64,000 bases of DNA, taken from positions 28,997-92,996 of the IMG/VR virus record IMGVR_UViG_3300045988_112558, one strand, 5' to 3'. Made by a program: the position numbers and the translations under genes. The notes beneath the pieces are model-generated. The model saw only the letters and a program-made list of their open reading frames with translations, was not told the origin of the DNA and searched no databases. This document shows, piece by piece, positions 6,461-60,111 of the stretch. Each line of letters begins with the position of its first letter. The stretch's first letter is position 1. Source of the DNA: a virus.

Positions 6461-6533
6461 CGAAAATTAGCGTAGTGGATAACGCGGTATTCTGTAAAAA
6501 TACTTTTCATTGGTTCGAATCCAATATTTTCAT
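6461..6533 (+). tRNA. tRNA-Tyr (anticodon GUA), 73 nt, with a C1·A72 mismatch at the top of the acceptor stem.
   Basis: Hand-folded cloverleaf. Acceptor CGAAAAT/ATTTTCA (6 of 7 pairs). D-stem GCGT/ACGC with loop AGTGGATA. Anticodon stem GTATT/AATAC with loop CTGTAAA (U33, GUA, A37). Variable loop TTTTC. T-arm ATTGG-TTCGAAT-CCAAT. Discriminator T, no encoded CCA. Confidence 0.65.
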
Positions 6534-6589: not shown

Positions 6590-6681
6590 GTGATGGGGTT
6601 AGTTACTTCGAATTTAGCTCAGATGGATAGAGCGATACTCAGTTAAAGTATAGGTCGATGGTTCAAATCCATTATTTCATT
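6590..6681 (+). ncRNA. tRNA-like element 3: well-formed D, anticodon (GUU, Asn-like) and T arms but a non-pairing acceptor stem and A33 in the loop, preceded by the 5' box GTGGTGATGG...TTACTTCGAA. Either a degenerate tRNA-Asn or a tRNA-mimic ncRNA.
   Basis: D-arm GCTC-AGATGGATA-GAGC (6617-6633). Anticodon stem ATACT/AGTAT with loop CAGTTAA (6635-6651). T-arm GATGG-TTCAAAT-CCATT (6657-6673). The flanks TCGAATT / ATTTCAT pair at only 4 of 7 positions. The 5' box at 6592-6611 is shared with units 1 and 2. Confidence 0.4.
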
Positions 6682-27334: not shown

Positions 27335-29593
27335 ATGGGTGTCAAATGTCAGATAGAAAAAAAGGAAAATGAAATAAAACGGGTTAAGGCTCCTAACGGG
27401 GAGCCTTCCGTTCTTTACGAAAGTGCTTTAAAAGTATTAGGAAACAGCGAGCGGGCTCTTCAGGTATGGGCTAAGGCTTACACTCCTGGTTTTTCGTCGT
27501 ATTACGGTCATTGGAATAACCCGGCTCCAGGGGAGATGTTTAACACCGATCCCAATGGCGAACCTCTTTTAGAAGATGTGCTGTCGTATATGAAGCGTCA
27601 GACTTATTTTGCTGATCCTTTAACGGCTCAGGATGTTAAGGATGTAAGGGATTTCCTTTTGTCTACTCATTATTTTTTCAATGCGTCTTCATTGTCTAAT
27701 GCTATTCTCTTCGATTTTTATGTAGATGGCAGTTTGATACTGAATGAGCAGAAATTAAGGAGATCCGGTTTGTATGATGAAACAGAAATAAGTCGTATTT
27801 TATCCGATCCTTCTGTTTTAAACGAGGTTTCGACTTCCATGAGAAAGTTAATAGATTCTTCTATTAACGAACATGATAGGGAAAAAGATAATTATTTTAT
27901 GTCTATTGACTATCAGTATGGTCCTATTGTTTACAAGGAGGGAGTGTTTAACCAATTTGGTAAAAAAGTACCATATAATCCTTCTGAGCTTTATTATGCT
28001 ATGCGTAAAACAGTAGCCGGCATAAAAAACTTTTCTGAATTTTCATCTGCTTTTGAATCGTTGAGAAATTCATATCCTGAACTGGTTGAGAAATTCGTTT
28101 CTGATAAAGAATTTGCCGAATCTATGTTTGATGAGTTCTCATCTACGAATAAGATTCCGGTAATAAACATAGAAGGGGATGATGTGGTGGAAGGCAAGAG
28201 AAGATCTTTGTCTAAGCTACAAGATCTTTCTTATTACAATTCCGGCAAAATAGAGTTCCTAAGAGCTCGTATATCAGCTTATTTACATAGGGCTAATGCC
28301 GACACCGAATCCGATTTAAGAAGCATGATATGGGATATAGAAGAGGCTTGTACGTGGTTTGGCATAGATATAATAGGGACATCGGAAACTTATGATGGCA
28401 CAGAAGAATCTTTGAATAAGATAGATAATTTGATGCTGGATCTTGATATTTATGTGGCCAGGCATAATGATGTAAATTATGCTCCAACGCTGGCATCTTC
28501 TATAGATGATGTTCTTGGTGATAGTACAGACTATTATTTTGGATTATTGCCGGAGTATATGGATAATTTGAATATCGTTTATTCTGAATCCGATATAGAC
28601 CCAGTAGAGGCATTTGAGAAACATTCATTGCTTAAGGTAGGAGATAATCTATATCAAAGGATCAGCAAAGATGATCTTAACGAGATGTATCAAATATCAA
28701 CAGTATTAGCCAAGCACAACCTAACTCATTTTTCTACTAAAATATATCCTGAATCTTGTTTTAAGAACGGCGTTTTGGATAAAGAGAAAGTACGGAACGT
28801 AGATAATAATACGCTCATGGCTTCCATTAAAAAATACGTCAGATCGTTCATGGATTCTCAGAACACAGAGGACATGATAATGACCAGGATGGCGTTTGGG
28901 CACCCTGCGGTACTTGACGTTCCTTACGTGGATGTGGATCGGGAGTATAGTCGATACATGAACAAAAAACAAGATAGCGAAAACCCATTATCCTTATTCG
29001 ATTTATACCAATCTTACCTTGACAACAAACTCCATAAAACAAAATTATATGATAATGCCTATAAGTATCTTGACTTCAAACCTGGTCCATCTTTGGGTCT
29101 TATTTCTGATGATCCTGATATTTTGAAATCAATAGAATTATCTTTATCTGGAAAAGACAGGTTGATGTTGTTTGATTATAGCATGACCAGTACCGACCCT
29201 TCTTTATCAGAATTGTTTTATTTGGAGAGGTATGACCCTTCGTATGCTGGGAATGATTTTGAACACTATTTTTACACCAGGCACCCGTATTTGTTAAAAG
29301 AAAAATCGGGTTCTAATATCGTAGAGCAAGATGGTGTTATAACAGCAGAAGGTATTTATGATAATTTTATAAGAGTAGGTAATAAGATATGGTCTAAAGT
29401 AAGCGAGAGTAGTTCCGGCTCTATCTACCAAAATCTGACAGGAACCGAATCGGAGGTGAAATACGATTCTACTCAGAAGGCTAAGACGGTAGAAACTGAT
29501 TACGCTCCATACCAAAACAGATCTGGCTTGACGCAAGACATGACCGTAAGCAAGTCTGAATTGGATGATCTTAACAAATTAGAATGCAGGTAA
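27335..29593 (+). CDS. Large hypothetical protein (about 752 aa), last gene of the plus-strand operon.
   Basis: The listed ORF begins at a TTG (27314). The first ATG is at 27335. Followed by a terminator at 29636. Confidence 0.55.
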   Translation: MGVKCQIEKKENEIKRVKAPNGEPSVLYESALKVLGNSERALQVWAKAYTPGFSSYYGHWNNPAPGEMFNTDPNGEPLLEDVLSYMKRQTYFADPLTAQDVKDVRDFLLSTHYFFNASSLSNAILFDFYVDGSLILNEQKLRRSGLYDETEISRILSDPSVLNEVSTSMRKLIDSSINEHDREKDNYFMSIDYQYGPIVYKEGVFNQFGKKVPYNPSELYYAMRKTVAGIKNFSEFSSAFESLRNSYPELVEKFVSDKEFAESMFDEFSSTNKIPVINIEGDDVVEGKRRSLSKLQDLSYYNSGKIEFLRARISAYLHRANADTESDLRSMIWDIEEACTWFGIDIIGTSETYDGTEESLNKIDNLMLDLDIYVARHNDVNYAPTLASSIDDVLGDSTDYYFGLLPEYMDNLNIVYSESDIDPVEAFEKHSLLKVGDNLYQRISKDDLNEMYQISTVLAKHNLTHFSTKIYPESCFKNGVLDKEKVRNVDNNTLMASIKKYVRSFMDSQNTEDMIMTRMAFGHPAVLDVPYVDVDREYSRYMNKKQDSENPLSLFDLYQSYLDNKLHKTKLYDNAYKYLDFKPGPSLGLISDDPDILKSIELSLSGKDRLMLFDYSMTSTDPSLSELFYLERYDPSYAGNDFEHYFYTRHPYLLKEKSGSNIVEQDGVITAEGIYDNFIRVGNKIWSKVSESSSGSIYQNLTGTESEVKYDSTQKAKTVETDYAPYQNRSGLTQDMTVSKSELDDLNKLECR

Positions 29594-48362: not shown

Positions 48363-48719
48363 TCACATTATTCCTTCTAAATTTACTTTTATAGAACCAT
48401 TTATGGTTTTAATGCTCCCATCTATGGTTGAAATCACATCATCTATATCATTTATAATGCCTTCCATGTCATCAACCACCTCCTCCATATCAGTTACAGC
48501 CCGATCTGATTCCCAATATCTTTCTGAGTCTTGTAACGATTCCGGTATATTATCTCTCGCCTCCGTCTCTTCATCTAAAATCATATCAATATCATCTTTG
48601 GCTGAATTTATGTTGTGCTTTAACTCCGATAACTTTGATTTGATGTATTCAAAATCTGTTTTATACTTATTTGCGTTTTTGATAACATCTGATATTTTTT
48701 TTCTTCTCTTGTTGTTCAT
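48363..48719 (-). CDS. Acidic hypothetical protein (118 aa).
   Basis: ORF whose stop overlaps the helicase gene start. Confidence 0.45.
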   Translation of the reverse strand: MNNKRRKKISDVIKNANKYKTDFEYIKSKLSELKHNINSAKDDIDMILDEETEARDNIPESLQDSERYWESDRAVTDMEEVVDDMEGIINDIDDVISTIDGSIKTINGSIKVNLEGIM

Positions 48720-50146
48720 GCTTTTATCCTATTATAATATTCGATAATCTTTTCTTTCCTATCTCCCGGTTTTACTGCCATATTCTCAGCCAAGAACCTA
48801 AAATACGACACCGGTATGTCCTTGAATCTAATTCCTTCATATTTTCCAAACCACATTATTATACTGTCAAGATCGTCTTCTCTCCTACCATCTCCATTCA
48901 CAGATTTAAGAGAAGCTGCCCGGCGAAGGATTTCGTCTTTGGTAATAATATCCCCCATCCTTATATTGGATAGAAGCTGATTGCCGGCAAACATACACCA
49001 GCCCTTAGAAGGAAATTGTTCGATCGTTAAATCTTCTATCCGGCCGAAACGCCTCATGTTGTCGCAGCAATCAACTATCAGTGCCTCTTTCTTGTCAGGA
49101 TGAATACGAACGCACCTGCCGAGCACCTGGTAATATGTTGAATATGAGAATGTTGGGCGCCCAAACATCACACAATCAAGTTCGGGAAAATCAAATCCGG
49201 TAGCAAGCGTTGAATAATTAAACACGACCTTCAACTTACCTTCTTTGAAATCGGATATGATTTGTTCTCTTTTCTTTTTGGTTGTTAGCGATGTTACGAC
49301 GCCGGTTATGGCTCCCATCCTGGCATTCATGAACTCTGATATTCTATTACATGATTCGATAGAATCCATGCAAACCAAAATGGCTTTACGCTCGTTCATA
49401 AGCTGAAGAAGACGCTTATAGATAGAGTTGTTTAAGCCATTTCGTACAATACTTTCTTTAATAGATTCGTTGGTGTATTCGGCCCCGGTACTGTTTAACA
49501 TCAGAGCCGATTCATCAAAAGACCATCGTTCGTACTTAAGTGGGCACCAAAACCCTTGAGAAGTTAGCTCTTGTATTTGAGTTACGTGAACTATCTTCTT
49601 AAAGAAGTTATGTTCGTCTTTCGTCAGCATATTGAGCTTGCTATAGTTCCCTTCCAGCATGGAGCTGTAGGTCCGGAGGCGGCAGGGCGTGGCAGTGAAG
49701 CCCAGCACCTTCGCCTCTGGGAACTCGTTCATAAACTCCATAAATTCAGAACCTTCTTCTGGGGAATATCCTGAATGACATTCGTCTATCAATAAGGTAT
49801 CTATCCCTATATCCTTCAACTTCGCTACATCTTTCTTTATGCTCTTTAATGTTGCATAAGTCATAGCCGACAGTTCTTTTACACCACATGAAGCAGAATA
49901 TATAGTAGGCTCAGAGCCGAATGATATAGCCTTCGCATAATTCTGCTCCAGAATCTCTTTAGATGGTTGCAATACAAGAATAGGTCTTTTTAATTCATGA
50001 GCTATCTTGCTAATTATTAAAGACTTCCCCGCTGCACACGGCAAGACTTCTATGCCAGGCTTCTTAGATCTTCCTGTAAGAAACTTAAGCCCGGCATCTA
50101 CTGCCTCTTTTTGGTAAGGTCTAAGTTCAAAGCCCACTGCAATCAA
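48716..50146 (-). CDS. Superfamily-2 DEAH-box DNA helicase (476 aa).
   Basis: LRPYQ Q-motif region, Walker A PCAAGKS, motif II DECH, motif III TATP. Confidence 0.7.
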   Translation of the reverse strand: MIAVGFELRPYQKEAVDAGLKFLTGRSKKPGIEVLPCAAGKSLIISKIAHELKRPILVLQPSKEILEQNYAKAISFGSEPTIYSASCGVKELSAMTYATLKSIKKDVAKLKDIGIDTLLIDECHSGYSPEEGSEFMEFMNEFPEAKVLGFTATPCRLRTYSSMLEGNYSKLNMLTKDEHNFFKKIVHVTQIQELTSQGFWCPLKYERWSFDESALMLNSTGAEYTNESIKESIVRNGLNNSIYKRLLQLMNERKAILVCMDSIESCNRISEFMNARMGAITGVVTSLTTKKKREQIISDFKEGKLKVVFNYSTLATGFDFPELDCVMFGRPTFSYSTYYQVLGRCVRIHPDKKEALIVDCCDNMRRFGRIEDLTIEQFPSKGWCMFAGNQLLSNIRMGDIITKDEILRRAASLKSVNGDGRREDDLDSIIMWFGKYEGIRFKDIPVSYFRFLAENMAVKPGDRKEKIIEYYNRIKA

Positions 50147-51010: not shown

Positions 51011-52030
51011 TCATCGCTTTATTTTTTTAGACGGATCCCAATCTGAAGAGAAAGGGCATTCGTTTTTGTTATGTAATCCAAAGTCACAATAATAACACAG
51101 TGCTGACGGGCAGGGTAGCTTGTTTTGCGAAACAGGCTGGCTTAGGGTGGCACGCCGCTTGCTATATCTGGCTCCTTCTGCTCCCTGGATGTACGCTTGA
51201 AATGATTTTACACTATTATCTTCAAAATCATACATTTTAGATAAAGTGTCATTTAGCATTTCTATAGATTTTGTTTTACGCTCTTCATCCACCTTAACCT
51301 TTTGGTACTGTCTGGTCCTGGTAAAGAAATAGATGTTCATATCTGGCAGAACTCCACCATATTTTCTATAGATGTAAAACGAATATATAGGATGCTGTAA
51401 ATTCGTTTCCAACTTCTTAGAATCAAAAACCTTATTCCCTGATTTCCAATCTATGACATAATGGTGAATTACGTTCTTGCTCTTTATAGCCAGATGAAGG
51501 TCTACTGATCCTACTATGTACACATGGGTATGAATTACCCCATTTATGTCAACTGGCTTAGGAAGGCGGTACGGCAGCACAAAATCTTCTTCGACTCCAA
51601 CTATAGCGCCGTGTCTGATAAGTTTCTCACAAGGATTAAGATCACTATCAGCTATCATAAACCTATTGCCGTCTTTTTTAAACAGATCCACAATCCAAGC
51701 AAGAAGTTCCCCAGATTGTTTCATGGCTATCATCATATTTTCCGGTGATTGCCAAGGTATGTCTTCTTGGTAAGCATAGTAACTTATTGCTTCTCCAAGG
51801 TCTTTGCTAGAAGGCTGCCTTCCGTTCTTGAAGAAGTATTCCAGTGTCTTATGAATAACCGTACCATAAGACGTAGCTTCTTGTTTTTCTGTAGACCTTT
51901 TGCCCTCTACGTAAGTCTTATACCATTTCATTGGACAAGTAAGAAACGTATCTATCTGGGAATAAGAAATGGCAAGACGTTTCACACCATTAAACTCCTT
52001 ATATAGCAAATGCGTTTCTGGGACCATCAT
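51011..52030 (-). CDS. RecB-family PD-(D/E)xK nuclease with terminal cysteine clusters (Cas4-like, probable Fe-S).
   Basis: GSVDLH (motif II Asp), VIDWKSGN (hhDYKTG-type motif III), QHPIY (QhxxY), an N-terminal Cys (LTCP) and a C-terminal CPSALCYYC...ECP cluster. Confidence 0.6.
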   Translation of the reverse strand: MMVPETHLLYKEFNGVKRLAISYSQIDTFLTCPMKWYKTYVEGKRSTEKQEATSYGTVIHKTLEYFFKNGRQPSSKDLGEAISYYAYQEDIPWQSPENMMIAMKQSGELLAWIVDLFKKDGNRFMIADSDLNPCEKLIRHGAIVGVEEDFVLPYRLPKPVDINGVIHTHVYIVGSVDLHLAIKSKNVIHHYVIDWKSGNKVFDSKKLETNLQHPIYSFYIYRKYGGVLPDMNIYFFTRTRQYQKVKVDEERKTKSIEMLNDTLSKMYDFEDNSVKSFQAYIQGAEGARYSKRRATLSQPVSQNKLPCPSALCYYCDFGLHNKNECPFSSDWDPSKKIKR

Positions 52031-52386
52031 AAGTCATTGTCTTTAAATCCTTCCGGGTAATATATGACATACTTCTTACCGTCTTCTGGTGTCATGGCAA
52101 ACTGCATGTAGTTATTACGATTACGATGTTTGCCATCTAATCCTCGCTTCCAATACAGTATCCCGTCTATATCCACATAAGATCGGCCCCGGTCGGCTCT
52201 AACTACGTCCGTGTGTAGTAGATACCCGTCGGAAGACACGATCCACACTTTATCACCTTTGCTTAAATAAGATATTCTTTTTCTTACAACAACCTTTTTC
52301 TTATTATCCAATACAAATTCCTCATCAGTCATACTCTTCATCCTCCTCTTCTTCTGTTTCAAAATCAATTCCATAACACTGATCAT
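52027..52386 (-). CDS. Hypothetical protein (119 aa).
   Basis: ORF. Confidence 0.45.
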   Translation of the reverse strand: MISVMELILKQKKRRMKSMTDEEFVLDNKKKVVVRKRISYLSKGDKVWIVSSDGYLLHTDVVRADRGRSYVDIDGILYWKRGLDGKHRNRNNYMQFAMTPEDGKKYVIYYPEGFKDNDL

Positions 52387-52549: not shown

Positions 52550-54250
52550 TTATTTTTTGTCATCTCCTTTTAATTTCTTTAAAGTATCTGCAATCGGAAG
52601 CTGATCAATGACTCCCAATGCCGGAGCGACGGTCTTGACAACATTGTTAAGGAAATTACCGGTGCTGTTTTGACCACCGTCAAATACCGTGATATTTCCG
52701 AGATTGATGTGCTCGAACGCCTTAACCTGTTCTCCAGCAATTTCTTTCCACTGATTAACCATCTTGTACTGAATGGCGATCTGAGGATTGGATTCTGCTG
52801 CTTCCACCATAGCCTTAAATCCGTCGGCTTCTGCCATTAACGACTTTTTCTTACCTTCGGCTTCTGCCTCCAGCTTCATCTGAATAGCCTTTGCCTCTGC
52901 CTCAGCTTTTGCCAAATGTGCTGCTGCCTCAGCCTCAGCCCGGCGTTTGATCTTCTCGGCCTCAGCATCAGCTTGTAATATAGCCTCTTCCTTCTGGGTT
53001 TCAGCCGGCACAATCTTTTCAGCCTTAAGCGCAGCCTGAACTTTCTTAGCCTTAGCTTCTTCCACTTCTTTATCAGCAAGCTCTTTTGCCGTTTTTACAG
53101 CCGCTTCCGATTTAACTTTTTCTTCTCCGGCCTTCTTTTCTGATTGAGCTTTGATAATCTGTAGTTCTGATACTGACACAGCAACCTCCTTCTGGGCATT
53201 GTTGTATCCTATAGACGCATTTTTCTCAGCCTCAGCCTTCTTAATCTGAGCTTCAGAGTCTTGTATTGCTATAGCTGCTTCCTTGTCAGCTTCAGCCTTA
53301 TTCTTTCCGACTTCTTCCATCCTTTCAGCCTCGGCTTTATTTACTTCAAGTTCTGCCTTAGATCTTACGATCGCCGATTCCTTGTCGGTTAAAGTTTTTG
53401 CGATAACCGCAGCCCTGTCTCTATCTGCTTGAGCTACACCGATCTGTTTCTCCTTATCGGTTAAAGCTAAAGCTATTTCTTTTTCTTTCTTCGTTTCAGC
53501 TACTATCGTTTCCTTTTCTTTTTCAGTACAAGCAATTTGAATCTCTTGTTCTTTTTTGGTATTAGCCACAGCCGTTTCTTTCTCCTTCTGCTGTACAGCA
53601 ATCTTAATAGCACCCAGCTTCTCCTGTTCTTCGATATTAGCCTGTGCCTCGTTCAGAGCCCTACTTTCAGCTTCCTTACCAAGGTTCATAATATAACCGG
53701 CTTCGTCTCTGATGTCACTGATGTTGATGTTCAGGAGGTAAAGACCTAACTTGTTAAGCTCGTTATCAATGTTCTTTCTCGCCTTATCCAAAAACTCATC
53801 CCTGTCAGAATTAAGTTTTTCGATCGTCATTTCAGCAATAATCAAACGCATCTGACCGTAAACGATGTCCGTAATAAGATTTTCAGTAGATTCGGTATCC
53901 ATCCCCAAAAGTCTTTCTGCCGCATTTTGCATGATTTCGGGATTTGTACTGATAGCTACTGTAATGGTCGTAGGTACATCTACTCTAATATTCTGAGATG
54001 ACAAAGCACCGGTAAGCTTGCAATCTATTTGCATAGGCTCCATTGACAAAACATCATAGCTTTGAATAATAGGCAAGACAAATGCCGCTCCACCATGATA
54101 TAATTTCGCCGATTTCTTTTCCCCACCTGTCTTACCATAAACGACCAAGACCTGATTAGGCTTACATCTACGATACCTTGATAAGACTCCGATGATTGTC
54201 AAAATAATCACTACAGCTAAGATAGCTGACACGTACATGATTGTTGTCAT
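52550..54250 (-). CDS. Flotillin-like SPFH/band-7 domain protein (566 aa) with an N-terminal membrane anchor and a long Ala/Glu/Lys-rich coiled coil.
   Basis: RYRRCKPNQVLVVYGK...GGAAFVLPIIQSYDVLSMEPMQID matches the start of the flotillin SPFH domain (compare B. subtilis FloT/YuaG). EA-repeat coiled coil at about aa 190-460. Confidence 0.8.
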   Translation of the reverse strand: MTTIMYVSAILAVVIILTIIGVLSRYRRCKPNQVLVVYGKTGGEKKSAKLYHGGAAFVLPIIQSYDVLSMEPMQIDCKLTGALSSQNIRVDVPTTITVAISTNPEIMQNAAERLLGMDTESTENLITDIVYGQMRLIIAEMTIEKLNSDRDEFLDKARKNIDNELNKLGLYLLNINISDIRDEAGYIMNLGKEAESRALNEAQANIEEQEKLGAIKIAVQQKEKETAVANTKKEQEIQIACTEKEKETIVAETKKEKEIALALTDKEKQIGVAQADRDRAAVIAKTLTDKESAIVRSKAELEVNKAEAERMEEVGKNKAEADKEAAIAIQDSEAQIKKAEAEKNASIGYNNAQKEVAVSVSELQIIKAQSEKKAGEEKVKSEAAVKTAKELADKEVEEAKAKKVQAALKAEKIVPAETQKEEAILQADAEAEKIKRRAEAEAAAHLAKAEAEAKAIQMKLEAEAEGKKKSLMAEADGFKAMVEAAESNPQIAIQYKMVNQWKEIAGEQVKAFEHINLGNITVFDGGQNSTGNFLNNVVKTVAPALGVIDQLPIADTLKKLKGDDKK

Positions 54251-54281
54251 AACTTTTAAAATCTAATTGTTGATAAAAAAA

Positions 54282-54776
54282 TTAGATACTTAATTCTCCT
54301 TCTTCATATTTTATATTCGCCTTGTCGCCGTTTTTGTAGGTTTTTCCAGACAAGCATTTTACTCTCATTTGCTCTTGTCTTCCATTTTTCGAAATATTTA
54401 CCATATAATGATTCTTCCCTGATCTAAATACTATCTCCACTTCTCTTCCGTTTAAATCTTCCGGACATTCGTACACCATTTCTTGCTTTAACTTAAGAAG
54501 TAACTTATATACGTAAAACAAAACGATAAAGAAAAACGACCCTATCACAACCCCTACTAAATGGGAACCCGAAAAGTAGGTAGTCCAGCTATATCCAAGA
54601 ATAAAATGTGTTATGCCCTTGAATGATATAATGTCCGACAAAGACATACTTAAATCAGAAGCACTGTCAATGTCAATATCCGTATCCAGATCAGATCCTA
54701 ATATCGATAACAAAAACTGTATAACAAAAGCAAATGACGCTATTAAAGCCATGCATAAAATTATGTCACTTCCCAT
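54282..54776 (-). CDS. NfeD-like membrane protein (164 aa), the usual operon partner of SPFH/flotillin proteins.
   Basis: Three hydrophobic helices followed by a beta-rich C-terminal domain (REVEIVFRSGKNHYMVNISKNGRQEQMRVKCLSGKTYKNGDKANIKYEEG). Synteny immediately upstream of flotillin, as in yuaF-yuaG. Confidence 0.55.
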   Translation of the reverse strand: MGSDIILCMALIASFAFVIQFLLSILGSDLDTDIDIDSASDLSMSLSDIISFKGITHFILGYSWTTYFSGSHLVGVVIGSFFFIVLFYVYKLLLKLKQEMVYECPEDLNGREVEIVFRSGKNHYMVNISKNGRQEQMRVKCLSGKTYKNGDKANIKYEEGELSI

Positions 54777-55017
54777 ACCCTTCTGTTATTATTTTGTAAA
54801 CAAGATCAGTCATATCTTTGATGGTCTCCATATCATAATCAATAATAACAATATTGAATTTTTGTTCCACCATCACATCAAGCTCAATTCGATCAATAGA
54901 ATCTAATCCAAGTTCTTTAAACGTCACATCTTCTTCATGAACTATATCTATTTCCGAATTAAGAAACTGAGTAATAATTATATCCTCTATTATCTTTCTG
55001 ATTCTTACTTTTTCCAT
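54766..55017 (-). CDS. Acyl carrier protein (83 aa).
   Basis: FKELGLDSIDRIELDVMVEQKF carries the phosphopantetheine-attachment DSL/DSI serine motif and helix II. Acidic, and the size is typical of an ACP. Confidence 0.75.
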   Translation of the reverse strand: MEKVRIRKIIEDIIITQFLNSEIDIVHEEDVTFKELGLDSIDRIELDVMVEQKFNIVIIDYDMETIKDMTDLVYKIITEGYGK

Positions 55018-55718
55018 TGCTTTCTAATTTTGTTAAATAAATACGTTTTTATGTTTTTCAATCGCTCTTTGTCTGTTTCAGAACTTCCGGTAAACAAATA
55101 ATCCGGATTGCCTTTAGCCGGCGGCGTAGGCAATTTAGATACGGCAAACAACCAATCCATTTCCTTATTCTTCTTAGACTCCAAATAAGGCTCGGTAGCG
55201 ATCTTAAATTTTTCAGCTATTAAGTCAAAGAGCTTTGAATTTTTAAGGTTCATATGTACTGAAAAAGCCTGAGAAGGTGGTTTCCATATGAAGTTGCATA
55301 AGCTCATTGTATAATCTCCTGACTCTGCTATATAAGATTCCGTTACCTGAAGTATGACCTCTTTCTTGAATGAGGTGTTACCCATAAACCAACACAATCT
55401 GGATTCTGCTTCTTTTCTGCTGACACCTATGTCTTTTGAATATGATTCGTACATTCCTATCATAATCCTCAACGTTTCCAGAACCTCGTCTGTCATTTCC
55501 GGTGTCTCTATATAATTTACAAAAGACGTTCCTTTGTTGGTTAATCTCATCACGCCTGATTTTAATTTCTCAACCAGGCCAAGCTCTATATACCTCCCAG
55601 CATCTTCTTCCGGCATGGCTTCGATCATAACCGAATCCTTCTGTCTTATGGCAAGAAGATTAGCAAGATCATTAGGAGTCATGTCTGATGCTGCAAGTTG
55701 TCTGAAATTGATGTACAT
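55005..55718 (-). CDS. Hypothetical protein (237 aa), first gene of the ACP/NfeD/flotillin operon.
   Basis: ORF overlapping the ACP start by 13 nt. Confidence 0.5.
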   Translation of the reverse strand: MYINFRQLAASDMTPNDLANLLAIRQKDSVMIEAMPEEDAGRYIELGLVEKLKSGVMRLTNKGTSFVNYIETPEMTDEVLETLRIMIGMYESYSKDIGVSRKEAESRLCWFMGNTSFKKEVILQVTESYIAESGDYTMSLCNFIWKPPSQAFSVHMNLKNSKLFDLIAEKFKIATEPYLESKKNKEMDWLFAVSKLPTPPAKGNPDYLFTGSSETDKERLKNIKTYLFNKIRKQWKK

Positions 55719-55933: not shown

Positions 55934-56536
55934 TTAACTGTTGTACCCTTCTTTAATAATCGAATTTCTACCGGTAGATACTGACTGTCGAAGATCGTCA
56001 TGTACAGAATCTACCGTAGAATACTTGTTTCTGGTTGTAAAAATCACTTCCAGCATCTCCTTATAATCACCTAAAGCTACTTCATATCTCGGATCTACTT
56101 TGGCTTTTCTTTCGGCCTCGGCATTACTCTTAGCCAGCTCTCGGTCAAGAAGATCTTCTTTGATTCGGTCAGCAATCATATCAAGCTCTTTCTTGATTAC
56201 TTCGCCGGCTGCCCGAAGTTGACCTTCTACGTCGCCAAGCTGATCTTGGACGGTTCCTATTTCTTTCTTTAGACGATCGTATTCGTTAATCATACCCATA
56301 TCACCTGCATAGCCGGAAAAGTCCTTGATTATTCTGGTTCCTTCTTTAAGGAGCTCAATGACTCGTCTTTTGCGTTCTCTGCTTATTAAAGACGGAAGAC
56401 GATAATTCATATCCGCCACCGCCTTGTCGTGTATGGAGTTGATTAAAAACATCTCTCTTTCATCCCCTGCAAATTCGGTAAGAACCAAAAGGAACTTACT
56501 TATCAGGTATTCGTTTTCTTCTACAGTAAGTCTCAT
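55934..56536 (-). CDS. Coiled-coil hypothetical protein (200 aa).
   Basis: ORF. Confidence 0.5.
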   Translation of the reverse strand: MRLTVEENEYLISKFLLVLTEFAGDEREMFLINSIHDKAVADMNYRLPSLISRERKRRVIELLKEGTRIIKDFSGYAGDMGMINEYDRLKKEIGTVQDQLGDVEGQLRAAGEVIKKELDMIADRIKEDLLDRELAKSNAEAERKAKVDPRYEVALGDYKEMLEVIFTTRNKYSTVDSVHDDLRQSVSTGRNSIIKEGYNS

Positions 56537-56549
56537 ACGTTTCTTTTTT

Positions 56550-57677
56550 TTAATATACTGACTGTTCTTCCTTTGTCTCTTGTTCTTGATTGTCCGTAAC
56601 GTCTTCCACAGTATAGAGCTTGGGCGGCGTCGGCGGCTGGTTGGGGTTCACGAACTTCGTACCTCCCTCCCCGTACATCCATCCATGCCCCGGCAGAATC
56701 TCTGGGTGGATTGTGTTAGTAAGCTCTTCCATACTAACCTGCCTTACCTTCAGTATATGATGAAACACCAGTCCGGCTGTCCTGAATGATGTTTTGTTTT
56801 CAGTTTTAAACCTATCAAGAGTCTGATACCAATCTTTCCCAAATATCATATACTTATCCAGTCCGTACCGACGAGGATTATGCAAACCTATCATTAACGT
56901 ACATAACTGACCCAGCGTATCAGACTGGTAAAAATCAGAAAGACGCGGAGGTTGCTCTTGTGGGCTTTTTATCCTTCCTTCTATCTCTCTGTTGAATTGG
57001 GATATAATGAGGAAAAATATGTTTTTATATACTAATTTAGCCTCATTCATAACCGCCACCAAATCATCTATAGCCGACTTAGGATCTAACCCCATTCTTT
57101 TTATTAAAGCAATATGATCGACTTTAAATATTATAAGACGTTTGTCTTTGTGTTTGGTAGCTATATGATACACAGCCGCCTCAAACTCTTTTACCGTACA
57201 CGGAGCATCGATGTATATTATATTATTTCTGATTTCACCTTGAAGGATTTCAAACATCCTCATCTCTTCTACTGTATTAGAATCTTGCCTTCTTAATATT
57301 TCAGGAGCCCTCTTTTTCATATCCTGGCTCATTCTACGAAGAAGAAGATCTTGAGGATTCATTTCGAACTCGCAATTGACAAGAAAATAATCTTCTGCTT
57401 GCGGGTTGATCATCGGATTCATCACATTTTCCAATATCTTTTGGGCCACATACGATTTACCCACAGATGGCCGGGCTCCTATGGCAATAGCATGCTGAGG
57501 AAAAATACCTCCAAGCAAAGCCTCATCAATATAATCGTATCCGGTTTTAGCGGGGATAAGCTCTCCCCGCCTGTATTTTAAGATATTCTCATACGCCTCT
57601 TCCATAACCTGTTTAGAGGTCTTGAATATCCTTCTTATATCTATCCTATTTGCTATCTCCTCTTGCATTTTTGTCAC
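56550..57677 (-). CDS. DnaB-family replicative helicase (RecA-like C-terminal domain only, 375 aa).
   Basis: TGYDYIDEALLGGIFPQHAIAIGARPSVGKSYVA contains the DnaB loader-contact region and Walker A motif. Walker B-like IFKVDHIAL. Confidence 0.7.
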   Translation of the reverse strand: MTKMQEEIANRIDIRRIFKTSKQVMEEAYENILKYRRGELIPAKTGYDYIDEALLGGIFPQHAIAIGARPSVGKSYVAQKILENVMNPMINPQAEDYFLVNCEFEMNPQDLLLRRMSQDMKKRAPEILRRQDSNTVEEMRMFEILQGEIRNNIIYIDAPCTVKEFEAAVYHIATKHKDKRLIIFKVDHIALIKRMGLDPKSAIDDLVAVMNEAKLVYKNIFFLIISQFNREIEGRIKSPQEQPPRLSDFYQSDTLGQLCTLMIGLHNPRRYGLDKYMIFGKDWYQTLDRFKTENKTSFRTAGLVFHHILKVRQVSMEELTNTIHPEILPGHGWMYGEGGTKFVNPNQPPTPPKLYTVEDVTDNQEQETKEEQSVY

Positions 57678-58783: not shown

Positions 58784-59120
58784 TTATATAACCCGGATGA
58801 TCTTCACACGCCTTTTTATATTCGATAAGAAACTTAAGAAATGAATCATAAGACCCCCATCCGTTTTTCGGCTCGTATCTCAAAAGACTTTTTCTCTTGG
58901 AGATCATAATACATATACCTTTTGTAAGTACATTCTTCATCTCATTGGTATATATTTCTCTATACAATTCTTCTGGTCTCCAAACATAATCGTACAGCGT
59001 TTCTTTATTTTCTGATACGAATATTCTTTGTGCCATCTTGTTCATGTTGTGGGTGATGTTTGCAACCCATTCACGATCCTCTTCCTTCTTCTTACTCTTA
59101 ATATAAACATCCAGGCTCAT
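58767..59120 (-). CDS. Hypothetical protein (117 aa).
   Basis: ORF. Confidence 0.45.
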   Translation of the reverse strand: MSLDVYIKSKKKEEDREWVANITHNMNKMAQRIFVSENKETLYDYVWRPEELYREIYTNEMKNVLTKGICIMISKRKSLLRYEPKNGWGSYDSFLKFLIEYKKACEDHPGYIIEASR

Positions 59121-60111
59121 GATATTTTTCCTTTACCTTGTTACTAATTATTAAATCTGCCACATCATCTCCATCTCCTACATTTTCAACATTTTGAAGA
59201 TAGTCCGATACTTTTATCCTTGACTTCATCATCATTCCATCTATCTTTTTACTCCATGTATCAAATGCTTGTCCTTTGTCCGGAAAAGCTACAGTCTTTC
59301 TATCTTTTAAAACATCTATCACTTCCGGCCTTAGATTCTGCAACCCTCCGGTGGCCACAAATAATTCATCTGGTTTATTCACAGCGCATATAATAGCCGT
59401 CTTTTCTGATTCCACCAGATTAACCACCTTATCCGGATACTGGCTTAGAAGATGCTCTCCGAACAGGCATTGTCTAAACAAGAAGTCCCTTGCATGCAAC
59501 GAGTGATAAAACATGATATGAGGCCGCTCATTGTCACCGTCTTTTTCTTTCACTCTTTTTACATCAATCTCATTCCCCTGGCTGTCGGTCTTTATATAAA
59601 AGTCCATGATCTTGCCGGTTCTACATACAAAGTCCTTATCTATCTGCCAGAATATACAACACCCTTTCCATCCCCATAAGTCCATTGTTCCGACATGATA
59701 TCTTCTAAATACGTCAGATACCCTTTCTTTTCCCCATAGAGACGATAAAAATCTAAATACAGTATTTCTATCATCTGGAACCACAGTCCTCTCAAACTCG
59801 CTAAAAGGTATGTAATTTACGACATCAGGGTTTACAGGAGGACGATAAGCTCTTATACACTTATTCCCAGAAATCCAAAGATCTTTGTCACCTACATCCT
59901 TGCCGGTAGGTCGTTTATCGTAACCGCAAGTCCGTTCATGATCGCATCTTCCGAACTCGTTTCCAACAATCTGACCTGTTGCCACATCAATATAAGGAGT
60001 AAGGCACCGGCCTTTCCCGCAGGCCGGGCAGGTTAGCTTCAGTCGGCTCCTGCCGGGTCTGCGGTCAAGTTGAAACCGGGGTACGTTTTCGTATTTTCTA
60101 AAATCAAGCAT
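59098..60111 (-). CDS. Putative DNA primase (N-terminal zinc finger plus a TOPRIM-like C-terminal domain).
   Basis: CPACGKGRC...GRCDHERTCGY zinc-binding. C-terminal LVESEKTAIICAV...ATGG...VAFPDKGQAFD resembles the TOPRIM Glu and acidic motifs. Lies near the DnaB-like helicase. Confidence 0.4.
   Translation of the reverse strand: MLDFRKYENVPRFQLDRRPGRSRLKLTCPACGKGRCLTPYIDVATGQIVGNEFGRCDHERTCGYDKRPTGKDVGDKDLWISGNKCIRAYRPPVNPDVVNYIPFSEFERTVVPDDRNTVFRFLSSLWGKERVSDVFRRYHVGTMDLWGWKGCCIFWQIDKDFVCRTGKIMDFYIKTDSQGNEIDVKRVKEKDGDNERPHIMFYHSLHARDFLFRQCLFGEHLLSQYPDKVVNLVESEKTAIICAVNKPDELFVATGGLQNLRPEVIDVLKDRKTVAFPDKGQAFDTWSKKIDGMMMKSRIKVSDYLQNVENVGDGDDVADLIISNKVKEKYHEPGCLY

Follow-up and report, generated by a model that had tools for sequence, protein, structure and literature searches.

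Why should a phage carry genes for a flotillin, an NfeD-like protein and an acyl carrier protein (ACP) side by side within its replication block, and do these genes belong together? The question is raised by a locus in a 64,000-nucleotide (nt) stretch of viral DNA (IMG/VR record IMGVR_UViG_3300045988_112558, positions 28,997 to 92,996), referred to here as the window, in whose positions coordinates are given. A sequence-only reading of the window had placed four genes there, encoding an unassigned protein of 237 amino acids (aa), an ACP of 83 aa, an NfeD-like protein of 164 aa and a flotillin-like protein of 566 aa, and had taken them for one operon by which the virus builds or remodels a lipid platform. 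All four open reading frames (ORFs) were present at exactly the positions assigned to them and lie on the minus strand, co-oriented with the surrounding replication-block genes (Table 1). The head-to-tail overlap that had been described holds for the 237-aa and ACP genes (13 nt) and for the ACP and NfeD-like genes (11 nt), but the NfeD-like and flotillin genes are separated by a gap of 31 nt. On balance, the analysis favours a host-derived NfeD-like/flotillin cassette that supplements or rewires the flotillin system of the host, its history and its role being taken together in this statement.

With GenBank OR575929.1 ('phage csAssE-Sib', 151,256 bp), a genome obtained from a human gut sample from Russia, the region shares 97.3% identity. 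This is the crAssE-Sib genome, which its paper (Viruses 2024;16:513, PMC11054128) places among the Epsilon crAss-like phages, in the proposed genus Epsilonunovirus. The paper proposes a persistent lifestyle based on a repressor and an antirepressor, genes for both of which are present. In the GenBank record, the labels 'flotillin family protein', 'transmembrane protein', 'acyl carrier protein' and 'hypothetical protein' are already public; the main text of the paper makes no mention of flotillin, SPFH, acyl carrier or membrane.

Flotillin and its NfeD-like partner

The assignment of the 566-aa protein to the SPFH/flotillin group was borne out by profile searches, in which it passed the gathering score of Band_7 (PF01145; 7.6e-26, 91.7 bits against a cutoff of 23.6), with residues 30-211 covering the full model, and also matched Flot (PF15975; 2.1e-9, 38 bits against a cutoff of 27). 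Its layout comprises an N-terminal hydrophobic anchor (residues 4-24, approximately), the SPFH/Band 7 domain (30-211), a coiled coil (approximately 213-449), which reads from the sequence as long and rich in Glu, Ala and Lys, and the Flot domain (450-559). The protein aligns end to end with the Bacteroidales 'flotillin family protein', and reached 144.5 bits against a cutoff of 700 with the equivalog model for Bacillus subtilis FloT (NCBIfam NF058507). Judged by its sequence it can firmly be classed as a bona fide flotillin, while it is no FloT equivalog. In-frame deletions in the coiled coil (window 52950-53600) were observed in alleles from long contigs (P0336, P0338 and P0343), encoding proteins of 467-487 aa as against 566 aa; these may represent true length polymorphism or an assembly collapse of the repetitive EA-rich region.

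The claim that the 164-aa protein is NfeD-like stood in part. A search with the NfeD profile PF01957 failed to match it even at E=10, but its fold, its family and its synteny support an NfeD-like protein. It belongs to no family in Pfam, NCBIfam, PHROG or PADLOC, and a sequence search of the PDB with a shallow six-sequence profile gave no match. Three transmembrane (TM) helices are predicted, the first two being joined by an acidic DxDxDxD loop, and a C-terminal OB-like beta-barrel of about 55 aa follows. An exhaustive profile search yielded 410 family representatives, each about 165-175 aa long; two of 81 family members matched PF01957 (best 6e-5), and the family profile aligned in register with the whole soluble domain of YuaF, at an E-value of only 0.27. 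The AF2 model (pLDDT 72.5 overall and 82-88 in the C-domain) likewise showed three TM helices and a small beta-barrel, so that the C-terminal OB-fold barrel of the NfeD type is represented, and a BFVD homologue with 34% identity over its full length carries the UniProt name 'NfeD-like C-terminal domain-containing protein'. Two further marks of the NfeD family, a membrane-embedded N-terminal part and a co-oriented, adjoining SPFH gene, were also found. The ClpP-like serine protease domain of the long NfeD1a/STOPP form was not detected in the 164-aa protein; because the protein is this short and has no protease domain, it was assigned to the short, YuaF-like type. In view of its structure and context, we take it to be a short NfeD-like protein of the YuaF type, though the sequence-model test failed.

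The partner of the Bacteroidales flotillins (165 aa; L174-L253, e.g. L191:3471-3968) has the same acidic DxDxDxD loop and C-terminal OB domain, with S51, K53, G54, H57 and F58 as near-invariant residues. It is annotated solely as 'hypothetical' or 'transmembrane protein' (NCBI, UniRef) and lies outside Pfam coverage; it appears to constitute an unrecognised NfeD-like family. The gene order, NfeD-like followed by flotillin, is the canonical pairing, as had been claimed.

Host origin and maintenance of the pair

A flotillin alignment, used to scan one genome per bacterial species, gave 324 matches, of which the best 80 were examined. All 80 were Bacteroidales chromosomes (Bacteroides, Phocaeicola, Parabacteroides, Prevotella, Leyella and Xylanibacter), and in 79 of these loci an NfeD-like homologue with 34-40% identity was situated directly upstream of the flotillin gene. 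The ACP, the 237-aa gene, the p119 gene and the small ORF of the phage were not found at any of the 80 loci. The phage flotillin is 66-71% (about 69%) identical to the Bacteroidales flotillins, and the two phage clades that carry it form one long branch. Host flotillins are mostly 82-99% identical across genera, a divergent copy of Phocaeicola vulgatus being about 73% identical to the others. By region, identity between phage and host amounts to 76-80% in the SPFH and Flot C-terminal domains and to 54-56% in the coiled coil, which is 33 residues longer in the phage. The base composition of the cassette is the same as that of the remainder of the phage.

Among the best 80 matches, an IMG/VR scan with a host flotillin recovered essentially only this phage lineage. 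The matches listed from a collection of 5.8 billion proteins were phage alleles, and no bacterial homologues were reached. Because they are only 25-31% identical to the present protein, the phage-labelled flotillins of KIT04 and MT835492 were considered independent acquisitions. Apparently, the sequence relationships reflect a single, old host-to-phage capture of a two-gene operon by the ancestor of two Epsilon crAss-like sister clades, and we regard the identity and evolutionary history of the pair as highly probable. It had been foreseen as a difficulty that the genes might sit on a host-derived insertion rather than in a conserved phage module. A host-derived pair in a variable slot is indeed what the data point to, but the insertion is an old one, fixed and selectively maintained in two clades.

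Maintenance was followed in the close relatives, here the best 80 IMG/VR matches. Wherever the contig reached, all four genes were present in 80/80; one locus at a contig end was without the 237-aa gene and part of the ACP gene. This flotillin was found on 164 IMG/VR contigs, while the protein clusters for the block genes have about 2,400-3,000 members. The ratio of nonsynonymous to synonymous substitution rates (dN/dS) could not be computed between phage clades, since synonymous sites were saturated (proportion of synonymous differences, pS, > 0.7), and the within-clade ratio of nonsynonymous to synonymous diversity (piN/piS) was used instead (Table 1). Against the clade of L084, the proportion of nonsynonymous differences (pN) was 0.11 for flotillin, 0.135 for DnaB, 0.093 for p200 and 0.42 for the ACP. 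Purifying selection acts as strongly on the pair as on the genes for helicase and nuclease, whereas on the ACP it is relaxed.

The variable slot and the genes around the pair

Divergent genomic contexts were read via homologues of the 237-aa gene, since IMG/VR scans returned mostly the same clade. A conserved backbone was found, consisting of the DnaB, p200 and 237-aa genes, in part p119, and the PD-(D/E)XK nuclease and SF2 helicase genes; the nuclease gene is syntenic in all relatives examined. A slot of variable content extends from the 237-aa gene to p119 or the nuclease gene and, regardless of its cargo, is followed by a p119 homologue in the L084, L091 and L095-L098 lineages. The clades of crAssE-Sib and L084 have in this slot the ACP, the NfeD-like protein, the flotillin (82% identical between the two clades) and a small ORF. 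In the L091 and L095-L098 clade it is filled by an ACP and a C5 DNA methylase, one copy of which contains an intein. Loci L254 and L256 have a single 101-aa ORF without Pfam match (L256 also a 51-aa ORF), with no ACP, NfeD-like or flotillin gene; L092 has a 105-aa ORF, likewise without Pfam match, then a p119-like gene, and no flotillin, NfeD-like or recognisable ACP gene. Nothing is inserted in L255, and in L093 and L094, the most distant contexts, unrelated small genes and no cassette were found. Because slot contents vary by lineage and the ACP is found without flotillin, the ACP and the NfeD-like/flotillin pair are regarded as separate acquisitions.

The survey of related phages that had been suggested as a check thus showed that the trio does not hold, the ACP occurring in some lineages and the pair in two sister clades. 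One operon of ACP, NfeD-like and flotillin genes, with or without the 237-aa gene, likewise finds no support, as sister phages carry the ACP and the 237-aa gene but not the pair, and hosts carry the pair but not the ACP. That genes adjoin and overlap in the replication block of a phage is not enough to make them a functional operon, and the slot is a hotspot for cargo. Inteins or homing-endonuclease domains were seen within the C5 DNA methylase of the slot and the SF2 helicase (L097:6949-8826, L094:6142-8571, L092:9014-10837), and IS605/TnpB genes near the block in L084, L092, L254 and L256; this region is one that mobile elements readily invade. The methylase-bearing clade has genes for two radical-SAM proteins (228 and 346 aa) between p119 and the nuclease gene, at L091:8217-9946 and also in L095, L097 and L098; they are another lineage-specific cargo of the same region.

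The 83-aa protein had rightly been called an ACP: it scored above the gathering score of PP-binding (PF00550; 28 bits against a cutoff of 20.8), carries the serine motif GLDSID and matched phrog_5934 (acyl carrier protein, 1.4e-8). The NCBIfam ACP models reached 28-30 bits at best, against cutoffs of 65-106. The motif GLDS[ILV]D was retained in 78 of 79 strains. The flotillin-less sister clade (L091:6675-6938, L097:6675-6938, L098:6675-6944) has Asp at the site of the phosphopantetheine serine (GFDDLD), implying that the protein does something other than carry acyl groups there; the ACP is absent from L254, L255, L256, L093 and L094. Of the genes in the block it evolves fastest, and a nonsense mutation (TAA/TGA) or a frameshift was present in about 9% of the alleles (7/79; L002-L081). 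No phosphopantetheinyl transferase (PPTase), acyltransferase, ketosynthase or fatty-acid/lipid enzyme was found among all 206 features of the GenBank annotation of the 151-kb genome, and when the 72 ORFs of 90 aa or more that otherwise had no annotation were searched against Pfam, no domain for lipid synthesis, acyltransferase or PPTase was returned. With no equivalog-level match and no phage-encoded PPTase, the protein does not correspond to a functional holo-ACP of lipid synthesis. It could conceivably be modified by the AcpS of the host; nothing suggests that the phage makes lipids.

The 237-aa protein has a putative N-terminal MarR-like winged helix and a C-terminal helical domain. It matched no family in Pfam, PHROG, NCBIfam or PADLOC, the best PADLOC result being LmuC at E=0.015. 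Its own family comprises 49 clusters with 36-98% identity, all of about 235 aa and, in the contexts examined, solely from phage-type contigs. In 10/10 related contexts examined, the gene lies downstream of DnaB and upstream of the nuclease gene, the SF2 helicase gene or both. MarR-type FabT, whose ligand is acyl-ACP, offers a speculative parallel to this protein encoded beside an ACP. At the other end of the cassette, the 50-aa ORF overlaps the flotillin stop codon by 14 nt; its counterpart in L084 (52 aa) has the same position and architecture, and none was found downstream of the host flotillins at the Bacteroidales loci. In 28 of 76 strains it is cut to 34 aa, with loss of the TM segment. 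The helicase, nuclease and primase genes that had been described around the locus were all recovered, as a DnaB_C helicase, a PD-(D/E)XK nuclease, an SF2 helicase and a DUF6371 primase-like gene.

Two observations were made elsewhere in the window. A TROVE/Ro60-like gene follows directly on tRNA genes for Tyr and Asn. Bacterial Ro60 acts together with tRNA-like Y RNAs; no Y RNA in the window scored at the gathering level of Rfam. A candidate anti-defence protein, judged by its sequence, is encoded in the late/structural half; it has a WDGH domain fused to a domain resembling Tad2 (Thoeris anti-defence 2).

Table 1. Positions of the features in the window, with intact reading frames and piN/piS among the close relatives
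Feature	Position	Strand	Intact frames	piN/piS	Remarks
Flotillin, 566 aa	52550-54250	-	76/80	0.041	Band_7 and Flot domains; core of cassette
Short NfeD-like membrane protein, 164 aa	54282-54776	-	80/80	0.063	Core of cassette; flotillin partner
Small tail-anchored ORF, 50 aa	52411-52563	-	46/76	0.37	Doubtful or dispensable third cassette member
ACP-like gene, 83 aa	54766-55017	-	71/79	0.36	Adjoins cassette; evolutionarily separate
237-aa backbone gene	55005-55718	-	79/79	0.050	Replication block; outside membrane cassette
p119 backbone gene	52027-52386	-			Downstream edge of variable slot; no family match
PD-(D/E)XK exonuclease	51011-52030	-	77/78	0.059	PDDEXK_1 1.5e-20; phrog_69 exonuclease 1.4e-23
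p200 backbone gene	55934-56536	-			Upstream of 237-aa gene; synteny
DnaB-like helicase	56550-57677	-			DnaB_C 8.8e-17; phrog_37407 2.6e-40
SF2 helicase	48716-50146				Flank of locus
Zn-ribbon/DUF6371 primase-like gene	59098-60111				Flank of locus
tRNA Tyr-GTA	6461-6533				
tRNA Asn-GTT	6608-6681				
TROVE/Ro60-like protein, 544 aa	6801-8435	+			TROVE 5.2e-14
WDGH/Tad2-like protein, 220 aa	34883-35545	+			WDGH 9e-37; Tad2-like 4.5e-11

Possible roles and comparison with known systems

The pair would be transcribed together with the co-oriented, tightly packed genes of the replication block. By analogy with bacterial systems, the N-terminal hydrophobic segment of the flotillin would insert into the inner membrane of the host, and the protein would oligomerise via its SPFH domain, long coiled coil and Flot C-domain into SPFH-type assemblies, on which the NfeD-like protein with its three TM helices would dock by the C-terminal OB domain, like YuaF on FloT (YuaG). 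Such an assembly may change membrane organisation. The phage would in this way supplement or rewire the flotillin system of the host, and membrane and envelope would stay functional and phage-controlled during a long, possibly persistent infection. This physiological role, a modulation of the host membrane or envelope, is held only tentatively when taken by itself, as a possibility well short of even.

Several points weigh against this proposal. The role would be derived purely from bacterial homologues, and simple supplementation is not obviously useful, because the host already has its own operon. The divergence of 30% and the longer coiled coil could be equally compatible with antagonism. 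As to the origin, the phage branch lies outside the sampled Bacteroidales flotillin clade, and the donor lineage is thus not pinned down. Finally, three of 80 flotillin alleles have an in-frame TAG at Gln (CAG) sites, at codon 405 in L047 and at codon 490 in L076 and L077. These codons could be plain nonsense mutations or a hint of TAG-to-Gln recoding, which is known from other crAss-like phages.

That the locus is an artefact of host contamination or chimeric assembly, or a very recent host insertion, can practically be dismissed. Although the genes are clearly host-type, the complete GenBank genome shows the same arrangement, as do 80/80 IMG/VR contigs, which come from many samples and were assembled independently, and a second clade carries the cassette; identity to any host is no higher than 66-71%, composition is phage-like and the cassette overlaps the phage ACP gene. 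The proposal of one operon of ACP, NfeD-like and flotillin genes, with or without the unassigned gene, that builds or remodels a lipid platform with acyl chains supplied by the ACP is consistent with the adjoining, co-oriented and partly overlapping genes, and with the ACP serine, which is kept in both flotillin-bearing clades and lost in the flotillin-less sister clade. We nevertheless consider it very improbable, given that sister phages have the ACP without the pair and 79/80 host operons the pair without the ACP, that the ACP is relaxed and sometimes broken whereas the pair is tightly constrained, and that no PPTase or lipid enzyme accompanies an ACP scoring far below the NCBIfam cutoffs. 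An anchor for a membrane-bound replication or assembly factory, a similarly remote prospect, would suit the position of the cassette amid the genes for DnaB, the 237-aa protein, the nuclease and the helicases, and membrane-attached phage replication is known elsewhere, e.g. with p16.7 of phi29. This position is, however, a swap-in slot also used by an unrelated methylase, and close relatives with the same replication genes wholly lack the pair, indicating that the machinery does not need it. Because of these co-occurrence data, and of relatives having the same replication genes without the pair, both the lipid platform and the replication anchor were ranked low. Membership of the pair in a lysis cassette was also considered and rejected, the M15 endopeptidase, TM and signal-peptide genes being situated about 80 kb away in OR575929.

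Two live rivals to the maintenance or rewiring of membrane and envelope, which is ranked first, are superinfection exclusion and hijacking of the host system, each of which we judge unlikely. In the case of exclusion or defence, an inner-membrane scaffold would block the genome entry of competing phages or shield infected or carrier cells from them. Known exclusion proteins are in many cases located in the inner membrane, the sister clade fills the same slot with a DNA methylase, i.e. an anti-restriction-type function, the membrane pair lies amid replication-block genes rather than in the lysis cassette, and the repressor and antirepressor genes suggest long residence in the cell. On the other hand, no PADLOC defence model was matched, no SPFH-based exclusion system was found in the searchable literature, and the pair is orthologous to a housekeeping host operon and not to a dedicated defence gene. 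Hijacking or antagonism would mean that the phage flotillin co-assembles with that of the host and poisons or redirects it, or that it cages a host membrane protease controlling phage regulators and the choice between lysis and persistence. The identity of the SPFH and Flot C-terminal domains to the host is maybe enough for co-assembly, while the coiled coil has diverged and lengthened and exists in in-frame length variants; repressor and antirepressor genes are present, and the control of lambda cII by HflKC-FtsH links SPFH proteins to phage decisions. Yet the NfeD-like partner that the phage itself brings is kept under selection, which is more suggestive of a unit working on its own than of a poison subunit, and no protease partner was identified for a protein that is of the flotillin and not the HflK/C type.

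A further reading, improbable but to be taken somewhat more seriously than either, is that the pair, far from being a spare copy of a housekeeping system of the host, forms a phage-specific SPFH cage with a lengthened coiled coil, which would either exclude competing phages or sequester a protease, transporter or defence sensor in the host membrane and would help to set a persistent, non-lytic lifestyle. If so, it would be the first functional virus-encoded flotillin system, in one of the most prevalent phage lineages of the human gut. Metagenomes of the human gut very commonly contain Epsilon crAss-like phages of this type. The captured operon offers a testable handle on the ways in which they handle the envelope of their host in the course of long infections, and on the role of flotillin/NfeD pairs in Bacteroidales.

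The closest known system is the chromosomal operon of the Bacteroidales (e.g. Bacteroides thetaiotaomicron), which agrees in both genes, in their order, in the short gap between them and in domain architecture; the phage version differs by its own long branch, its longer, diverged coiled coil, the extra tail-anchored ORF and its setting in a replication block. With yuaF-yuaG (NfeD2-FloT) of B. subtilis it shares a short membrane NfeD with OB domain directly upstream of a flotillin composed of N-terminal anchor, SPFH domain, EA-rich coiled coil and Flot C-domain. The similarity is, however, remote in sequence, a yuaI-like third gene is lacking, and the acidic DxDxDxD loop, a feature of the Bacteroidales-type family, sets the phage protein apart from YuaF. 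Escherichia coli has a similar NfeD-flotillin gene pair, yqiJ-yqiK. HflK/HflC-FtsH, the 'high frequency of lysogeny' locus of lambda, is an SPFH-family membrane complex that affects a phage life-cycle decision; it is host-encoded and of the HflK/C subfamily, whereas the present pair is phage-encoded, of the flotillin type and without a visible protease partner. The ACP has its counterparts in the PHROG 5934 proteins and in g153 of Yersinia phage fHe-Yen9-04, which are likewise small, acidic proteins of the PP-binding fold in large phages, but it is very divergent (28 bits), fast-evolving and sometimes broken, and has lost the serine in a related clade.

Phage-borne SPFH/flotillin genes also occur in Vibrio phage KIT04 ('flotillin family protein'), in Schitoviridae GIB1 and in Xanthomonas phage X1; the authors of one paper on such genes state that the reason for their presence 'remains unclear'. 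The ORFs flanking the KIT04 flotillin showed no similarity to the NfeD-like family, and two 'UNVERIFIED Bacteriophage sp.' flotillin records, which may be bacterial, had no NfeD recognisable by Pfam. In agreement with the remark that no characterised phage flotillin is known, none was found in the searchable literature, nor were papers that treat the function of phage-encoded flotillins, Bacteroides flotillin/NfeD or a crAss ACP. Unlike the present pair, none of the other phage flotillins has been shown to be part of a whole host operon under selection in a prevalent lineage. New here are the capture of a complete host operon, including its previously unrecognised NfeD-like partner, the selection on it, which resembles that on core genes, and the finding that the adjoining ACP is unrelated to it.

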